This document shows, one piece after another, positions 58,716 to 59,151 of a DNA stretch of 64,000 nt. Each line of letters begins with the position of its first letter. Position 1 is the first letter of the stretch. Origin of the DNA: Escherichia coli (GTDB taxonomy: Bacteria; Pseudomonadota; Gammaproteobacteria; Enterobacterales; Enterobacteriaceae); assembly GCF_003334815.1 (NCBI RefSeq), contig NZ_QOWO01000018.1; one strand, given 5' to 3'. The notes beneath the pieces were generated by a model, which made no database searches, was not told where the DNA came from, and was given only the letters and a program-made list of their open reading frames with translations. A program made the position numbers and the translations under genes.

Positions 58716-58856
58716 TCAACGTTTTTTCTTACGACCCTGAACGGCCTTAAAACGTGGATTAGATTTACAAATCACATATAGCCGTCCTTTTCGCTTCACA
58801 ATCTGACAGTCTGGATGGCGTTCTTTTGCGGTACGCAGAGAGTTAAGAACTTTCAT
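58716..58856 (-). CDS. rpmJ2: Ribosomal protein L36 paralog (zinc-independent type)
   Basis: 46 aa [46 protein letters not shown] translated by hand; start overlaps rpmE2 stop (ATGA). Confidence 0.85.
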
Positions 58857-59119
58857 CACGCCCCCTTTTTCGTGCTAACAAAACGACCAAAACGTTGGGT
58901 GAATCGTGCAACATTTCCTTCTGATGCCACTGTTCTCAGCTTCCCTGTATAGAACGGGTGCGATTTAGAAGAGACATCAATTGTCACGTATGGATACGTT
59001 ACGCCATCCAGCTCAATCTCACGGTCTGTTTTGATAGTCGAGCCGATTTTAAAGTACTCATCAACACTGGTGTCGTGGAACACCACAGTACGATACTCAG
59101 GATGGATATTGGGCTTCAT
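58856..59119 (-). CDS. rpmE2: Ribosomal protein L31 type B paralog
   Basis: 87 aa [23 protein letters not shown]...; no CxxC zinc ribbon; alternative ATG at 59122. Confidence 0.9.
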
Positions 59120-59126
59120 CATTTTT

Positions 59127-59151
59127 ACCTGTTATGTTATAACATAACCAT
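59127..59151. promoter_or_regulatory. Zur box (zinc uptake regulator operator) in rpmE2-rpmJ2 promoter
   Basis: acctGTTATGTTATAACATAACcat palindrome immediately upstream of rpmE2 start. Confidence 0.75.

Follow-up and report, generated by a model that had tools for sequence, protein, structure and literature searches.

Introduction

The ykgM–ykgO operon of Escherichia coli (ykgMO, also rpmE2–rpmJ2) is the model case of how ribosomes are remodelled to spare zinc, and the ykgM promoter is the most strongly Zur-repressed promoter in this species. The two genes are treated as one Zur-repressed operon, of which the L31p product represses rpmE (2022 NAR, PMC9825181). On the L31p operator Zur leaves a footprint of approximately 30 bp and shows the tightest apparent Kd of four operators, and repression in vivo is 560-fold, compared with 7–8-fold for znuC and pliG (PMC4219657). 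Expression of a ykgM-lacZ fusion rises almost 1000-fold in a zur::kan background or in the presence of TPEN, and is unaffected by bL31 supplied in trans (Aseev et al. 2020, PMC7297116); the same paper cites Hemm et al. 2010 for the induction of YkgO by EDTA. In E. coli Nissle exposed to calprotectin, ykgM and ykgO are up approximately 2500-fold and 1000-fold, respectively, and the ykgM promoter is in use as a calprotectin/zinc biosensor (2023 PNAS, calprotectin-sensing probiotics, PMC10410751). Thus, for this sequence, the literature has established Zur binding, repression by Zur and zinc, joint induction of the two genes and the entry of both proteins into the ribosome.

The Zur–DNA crystal structure yielded the 18-bp motif RxxxYRxxR*YxxYRxxxY, for which the L31p operator was ranked the best fit (Gilston et al. 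2014, PMC4219657). The znuA/znuCB, zinT and pliG operators share this motif, approximately 30–35 nt upstream of the start codon of the regulated gene. Here, we describe a copy of ykgM–ykgO in a 64-kb E. coli contig segment, hereafter the window, by which we mean the whole stretch of DNA that was analysed, and compare its promoter, operator, gene junction and 3′ end with those of its relatives.

Results

Identity and distribution of the locus

The 701 bases between positions 58600 and 59300 of the window are 100% identical to the corresponding sequence of K-12 MG1655 and also to that of many other strains. For this segment RefSeq names ykgL on the plus strand, ykgO as “type B 50S ribosomal protein L36” and ykgM as “type B 50S ribosomal protein L31”, and the ORF listing gave two short minus-strand ORFs inside the interval under study. 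The gene ykgM (rpmE2; 59119..58856, minus strand) encodes bL31B (87 aa), and ykgO (rpmJ2; 58856..58716, minus strand) encodes bL36B (46 aa). The RefSeq coordinates of both genes were transferred from MG1655 and the locus was re-checked on EC416, one of the strains that match the window at 100%. The uncharacterised ORF ykgL (58454–58681, plus strand, RefSeq annotation) is convergent with them. We are highly confident that this stretch is the E. coli ykgM–ykgO operon, repressed by Zur in the presence of zinc and induced when zinc falls, and that this explains it as a whole. Both the operon and its control by Zur are already known; the feature is genuine and has been fully described before.

Among 5426 complete E. 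coli genomes, the locus was found in 5063. A 69-bp piece covering the promoter and operator was present at an identity of at least 90% in 5058 of the 5426 genomes, and at 95% or more in all but 8 records. Approximately 363 of the complete genomes carry no match to the locus, and 12–13 of the E. coli matches lie in records labelled as plasmids. In two chicken isolates, AHM9C68I and AHM9C61I, the 701-bp ykgL–ykgM stretch is present in two pieces spanning 1478 bp. An IS1A transposase is annotated under the split match in these isolates, and we therefore consider that IS1 has inserted in or beside the operon.

The surroundings of the locus are not those of K-12. Collinearity with MG1655 is confined to approximately positions 44,001 to 62,000. 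The window does not contain the CP4-6 prophage, and proA/thrW therefore appear to run on into the pao–ecp region. To the right of ykgR lies an intact fdeC (eaeH), where K-12 has a pseudogene disrupted by IS3. The ykgM–ykgO locus is unaffected by this non-K-12 background.

YkgM and YkgO are the type B forms of L31 and L36

Family scores and comparison with the zinc-binding paralogs identified both products. YkgM scored 122.9 bits against NCBIfam NF002462 (type B L31; curated cut-off, 86), placing it in this subfamily, and matched Pfam PF01197 (Ribosomal_L31) with E = 1.1e-24. It contains no cysteine; in an alignment with E. coli RpmE, T, V, S and S stand at the positions of RpmE residues C16, C18, C37 and C40. 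The 68 residues of chain D7 (“L31 type B”) in the solved E. coli ribosome 6i7v are identical to residues 1–68 of YkgM, and as judged from this sequence match YkgM would take the bL31 position in the ribosome.

YkgO scored 91 bits against NCBIfam NF002021 (type B L36; curated cut-off, 70), which likewise places it in the subfamily, and is identical to chain C5 of 6i7v, named “L36 2”. When the ligand positions of RpmJ were compared with YkgO (C11 to H14, C14 to C17, C27 to C30 and H33 to F36), two of the four were found to be kept, and the zinc-free status of YkgO rests on the literature (PMC9825181).

A perfect Zur palindrome adjoins the Shine–Dalgarno sequence of ykgM

A perfect 18-bp palindrome (9+9), GTTATGTTATAACATAAC, occupies positions 59131–59148; it reads GTTATGTTA|TAACATAAC about its centre and was assigned to no strand. 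It is the sole match in the 64-kb window, even when up to 3 mismatches are permitted, with 0.01 matches expected from shuffled sequences. The preliminary description had reported a near-perfect Zur palindrome over the rpmE2 start region. The palindrome is indeed present, and “near-perfect” understates it. Its placement directly over the start needs correction: it lies 11 nt 5′ of the annotated ATG of ykgM (59119), or 8 nt from an in-frame upstream ATG (59122), adjoins the Shine–Dalgarno sequence and covers the predicted +1.

The ykgM box, written G-TTA-T-G-TT-A*T-AA-C-A-TAA-C, matches the 18-bp motif at all eight specified positions. A Zur weight matrix was then used that contained only the operator sites of znuCA, zinT and pliG together with their reverse complements. 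With the register of these training sites picked by best match to the ykgM box, a scan of both strands of the window (approximately 128,000 positions) ranked position 59131 first at 27.6 bits, against 14.3 bits for the runner-up. The motif scan with a Zur matrix, which had been proposed as a check, thus returned the ykgM box as the top match in the window. The runner-up, GTTCTTTTCTAATATCAC (57300–57317), lies inside the ecpR coding region and is probably a chance match. We also compared the box with the 23-bp gamma-proteobacterial consensus GAAATGTTATA-N-TATAACATTTC. The box agreed at 16 of 22 positions and was the best match in the window, with the next at 15 of 22; the consensus is of odd length, so that an even palindrome cannot be centred on it. 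Because this older consensus separates the box poorly from chance hits, the 18-bp motif and the matrix built from real operators were given precedence. As a whole, three independent lines, namely the published motif, the matrix from other operators and comparative genomics (below), identify the palindrome at the level of sequence as a Zur box.

The box is conserved upstream of L31B genes in other genera

A scan limited to one genome per species gave 80 loci encoding close relatives of YkgM, or 81 with the locus of the window. The genera sampled were Escherichia, Citrobacter, Kluyvera, Enterobacter, Klebsiella, Salmonella, Serratia, Photorhabdus, Brenneria, Vibrio, Pseudoalteromonas and others. 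A box matching at 14 or more of the 18 positions was found in the 200 nt preceding the L31B gene at every one of the 81 loci: six boxes were exact, 28 matched at 17/18 and 35 at 16/18. In 75/81 loci the box ends 10–14 nt before the ATG. The highest match among 1620 shuffled upstream regions was 13/18, and the same maximum was obtained for 200-nt control segments, save for one segment at 15/18. This exception was rejected as a spurious box, since it is the real box of one of the sampled loci (L063), whose gene start falls at base 157 inside the control segment. No extra box at 14/18 or better was found in the flanks of the 81 loci.

One locus (L057) comes from a record titled Chryseobacterium sp. 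18061 and has an enterobacterial look. It shares its Zur box 18-mer with Citrobacter sp. 18056 (L051), a locus from that very study, and closely resembles L051 in promoter and junction; the assembly is probably mislabelled or contaminated.

The box overlaps a predicted core promoter

Read along the coding strand, the region upstream of ykgM consists of TTGAAA, 17 nt, TATCTT, TATG, the palindrome, AGGTAAAA and ATGATG. A consensus scan predicted TTGAAA (59176..59181, minus strand) as a −35-like hexamer and TATCTT (59153..59158, minus strand), which carries the conserved TAnnnT, as a −10-like hexamer; together they match the consensus at 9 of 12 positions with a 17-nt spacer. An AGGU (59127..59130, minus strand; AGG at 59130–59128), read from the sequence as Shine–Dalgarno-like for ykgM, abuts the palindrome on its other side. 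In number, the sites returned by a simple promoter scan do not exceed chance, one having been found against a mean of 2.8 in shuffled sequence.

Comparison with relatives argues for the predicted arrangement. In an alignment of 80 unique orthologous promoters anchored at the box, a TTG at the −35 distance was the most conserved upstream element, TAnnnT was conserved directly 5′ of the box, and a GAGG/AGG element stood at the place of the ykgM Shine–Dalgarno sequence. The predicted order of −35, −10 and box, in which the box overlaps the core promoter, is thus conserved in these 80 promoters. Since the box begins 4 nt downstream of the −10-like hexamer, it would lie over the predicted +1 region. 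Our literature search found no published transcription start for E. coli ykgM. In Yersinia pestis the start site of ykgM-rpmJ2 has been mapped, and the footprinted Zur site overlaps the −10 (2009 BMC Microbiology, PMC2706843).

Both genes of the operon show doubled in-frame starts, ATGATG at ykgM (the extra ATG being at 59122–59120) and GTGATG at ykgO (GTG at 58859–58857). A doubled ATGATG also occurs at the ykgO junction in Kluyvera and Klebsiella loci.

The ykgM–ykgO junction and the translation of ykgO

On the coding strand the junction reads AAA AAG GGG GCG UGA UGA AAG. The stop codon of ykgM (UGA, 58858–58856) and the start codon of ykgO (AUG, 58856–58854) share one base, giving UGAUG (58854..58858, minus strand). 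The four-base ATGA overlap of rpmE2 and rpmJ2 that had been described earlier is therefore not what this sequence contains. A 4-nt overlap, GUGA, would require ykgO to start at the GTG at 58859, and the AUG is favoured over this GUG because the N-terminus that it yields, M[KQ]V[LV]NSL, is conserved. A true 4-nt ATGA overlap is seen in the Escherichia albertii orthologue (L002). A Shine–Dalgarno-like AAGGGGG (58861..58867, minus strand), read from the sequence, lies within the last codons of ykgM, and a purine-rich GAGG, GGAG or GGGG run is found at the same place in the orthologues.

The gap between the ykgM stop and the ykgO AUG measured −4 nt in 1 of the 81 loci, −1 nt in 17, 0 nt in 3, +1 to +5 nt in 52, 9 to 18 nt in 7 and 197 nt in 1. 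Tight spacing, from −4 to +5 nt, is thus kept in 73/81 loci; true overlap occurs in only 18/81 and is not conserved. Termination–reinitiation in E. coli works at spacings of −4 to +5 nt.

The overlap of stop and start that is looked for in a coupled gene pair is present here, at 1 nt. The structure that would mask the downstream start of such a pair was not seen, as the junction RNA is less structured than its shuffles (z = +1.2), and the ykgO start is therefore not masked. Our literature search found no publication testing translational coupling between ykgM and ykgO. On the features of the sequence, we put at about even chances the reading that ykgO uses its own Shine–Dalgarno sequence and that the 1-nt overlap probably allows re-initiation, which would result in partial translational coupling.

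A second reading, to which we give a little under even chances, is that ykgO is translated independently, by de novo loading of ribosomes at AAGGGGG, and that the 1-nt overlap reflects compact packing with no functional coupling. The unstructured junction agrees with it, as does the Shine–Dalgarno-like purine run, which precedes the AUG by 4–11 nt both in the window and in every relative. Most relatives have a gap of 2–3 nt with no overlap, and in Brenneria sp. 4F2 (L072) the spacer reaches 197 nt, indicating that expression of ykgO does not need a stop codon close by on its 5′ side. Independent translation is harder to reconcile with the spacing maintained in 73 of the 81 loci, and with the need for both products at 1:1 in the same ribosomes. 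We retain partial coupling, with initiation at the own Shine–Dalgarno sequence of ykgO, as the working reading of the junction.

The 3′ end of the operon

A simple consensus scan found no canonical terminator after ykgO. Folding of the minus-strand RNA downstream of ykgO showed a strongly structured region (MFE, −33.4 kcal/mol; z = −6.4 against shuffles). Within it, RNA folding predicted a candidate intrinsic terminator (58628..58665, minus strand), consisting of a hairpin of 13–15 bp (58665–58632) followed by UUUU (58631–58628). The hairpin is AU-rich (−16.6 kcal/mol), is followed by the T-run and lies inside the convergent ykgL ORF. A hairpin with a T-run within 130 nt of ykgO was found in 46/81 loci. 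On the strength of the folding model, the structured region within or just past ykgL may be the ykgMO terminator.

Three hairpins can be drawn on the minus strand between 58628 and 58725, including a perfect 15-bp inverted repeat, AATTAATGTTGGTGT/ACACCAACATTAATT, within the ykgL coding sequence. In view of the structured RNA and of this inverted repeat within ykgL, one may ask whether ykgL is a genuine gene.

Alternative roles of the palindrome

We considered whether the conserved elements carry functions beyond an operator. A combined proposal, in which a hairpin formed by the palindrome at the 5′ end tunes mRNA stability or bL31B feedback and, separately, the tight junction enforces a 1:1 ratio of YkgM to YkgO by termination–reinitiation, is improbable when its parts are taken jointly. 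For the first part by itself, the palindrome would have a second function in the transcript, provided that transcription begins at its first bases or before them: a 7-bp hairpin, formed at the very 5′ end of the mRNA beside the Shine–Dalgarno sequence, would stabilise the transcript or serve as a binding site in autogenous control by bL31B. RNA starting at 59148 does fold into such a hairpin (−7.3 kcal/mol; z = −1.85), and both bL31B and bL31 repress rpmE via a hairpin in its 5′UTR (PMC9825181, PMC7297116). However, its AU-rich stem is weak and was equalled by 10 of 200 shuffles, and the predicted start, approximately 7 nt after the −10, falls within the palindrome, so that the hairpin would be truncated. 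In addition, the ykgM-lacZ fusion did not respond to bL31 in trans (PMC7297116), and Zur binding fully accounts for the conservation of the sequence. We consider this RNA-level role very unlikely. An Rfam scan of 57500–60500 with E <= 1 found no known RNA family.

That the palindrome is instead a site for a different member of the Fur family (Fur), or an AT-rich palindrome arisen by chance, with indirect zinc control, has next to no probability. Fur boxes, like Zur boxes, are AT-rich inverted repeats (PMC4219657), but chance predicts only 0.01 matches per window, the box keeps its position in different genera, its centre is the TATA found in Zur sites alone and lacking in the Fur consensus (PMC4219657), Zur binds the ykgM operator directly in EMSA and footprinting experiments (PMC4219657), and the published Zur–DNA binding and zur-deletion data rule the idea out.

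Discussion

With the Zur box as the operator of ykgMO, the published steps and the promoter predicted here combine into the following model. When zinc is sufficient, zinc-loaded Zur occupies the operator centred at 59131–59148 as a pair of dimers, one on either face of the DNA (PMC4219657). The operator would extend from 4 nt past the predicted −10 to the Shine–Dalgarno sequence; since it spans this region, including the predicted +1, bound Zur would block initiation by RNA polymerase. When free zinc falls, Zur leaves the DNA and a single transcript of ykgM and ykgO is made at a very high level. In the ribosome the products, bL31B with no zinc ligands and bL36B with an incomplete set, then replace RpmE and RpmJ, which bind zinc, and bL31B also shuts down rpmE.

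The preliminary description, a Zur-controlled operon for zinc-independent paralogs of L31 and L36, is borne out by the family scores, the loss of ligands, the operator matrix and the published experiments. It had named a lack of zinc- or Zur-dependent regulation as the observation that would speak against it, and published data show the opposite (PMC4219657, PMC7297116, PMC10410751); we found no evidence against Zur control. The occurrence in the window confirms the annotation and adds no biology beyond what is known.

Within E. coli, the nearest regulatory relatives of this locus are the other Zur operators, which, except for that of pliG, are bound by two Zur dimers (PMC4219657). Among them, a perfect palindrome is found at ykgM alone; the znuCA, zinT and pliG sites each match the ykgM box at 14/18 positions. 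On the matrix built from those three sites, the ykgM site scores above the sites themselves.

The Firmicute Zur box is assumed to differ from the E. coli one. In Bacillus subtilis, ytiA (rpmEB) follows the same logic, with derepression from Zur allowing a zinc-free L31 to displace the zinc-binding one; as far as the accounts of it in PMC2706843 and PMC7297116 go, ytiA is described with no partner gene, whereas the E. coli L31B is paired with an L36 paralog. A further relative is Y. pestis ykgM-rpmJ2, an orthologue from another genus, which by its published description has the same gene pair, an upstream Zur box, a Zur site over the −10 and repression by Zur (PMC2706843). The ykgM–ykgO operon of E. 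coli K-12 (ykgMO, l31p–l36p) is the same object as the one in the window, because the promoter, the Zur box, both genes and the junction are identical over 58600–59300. The two differ only outside the locus, where the window is without the CP4-6 prophage and carries an intact fdeC on its right flank.
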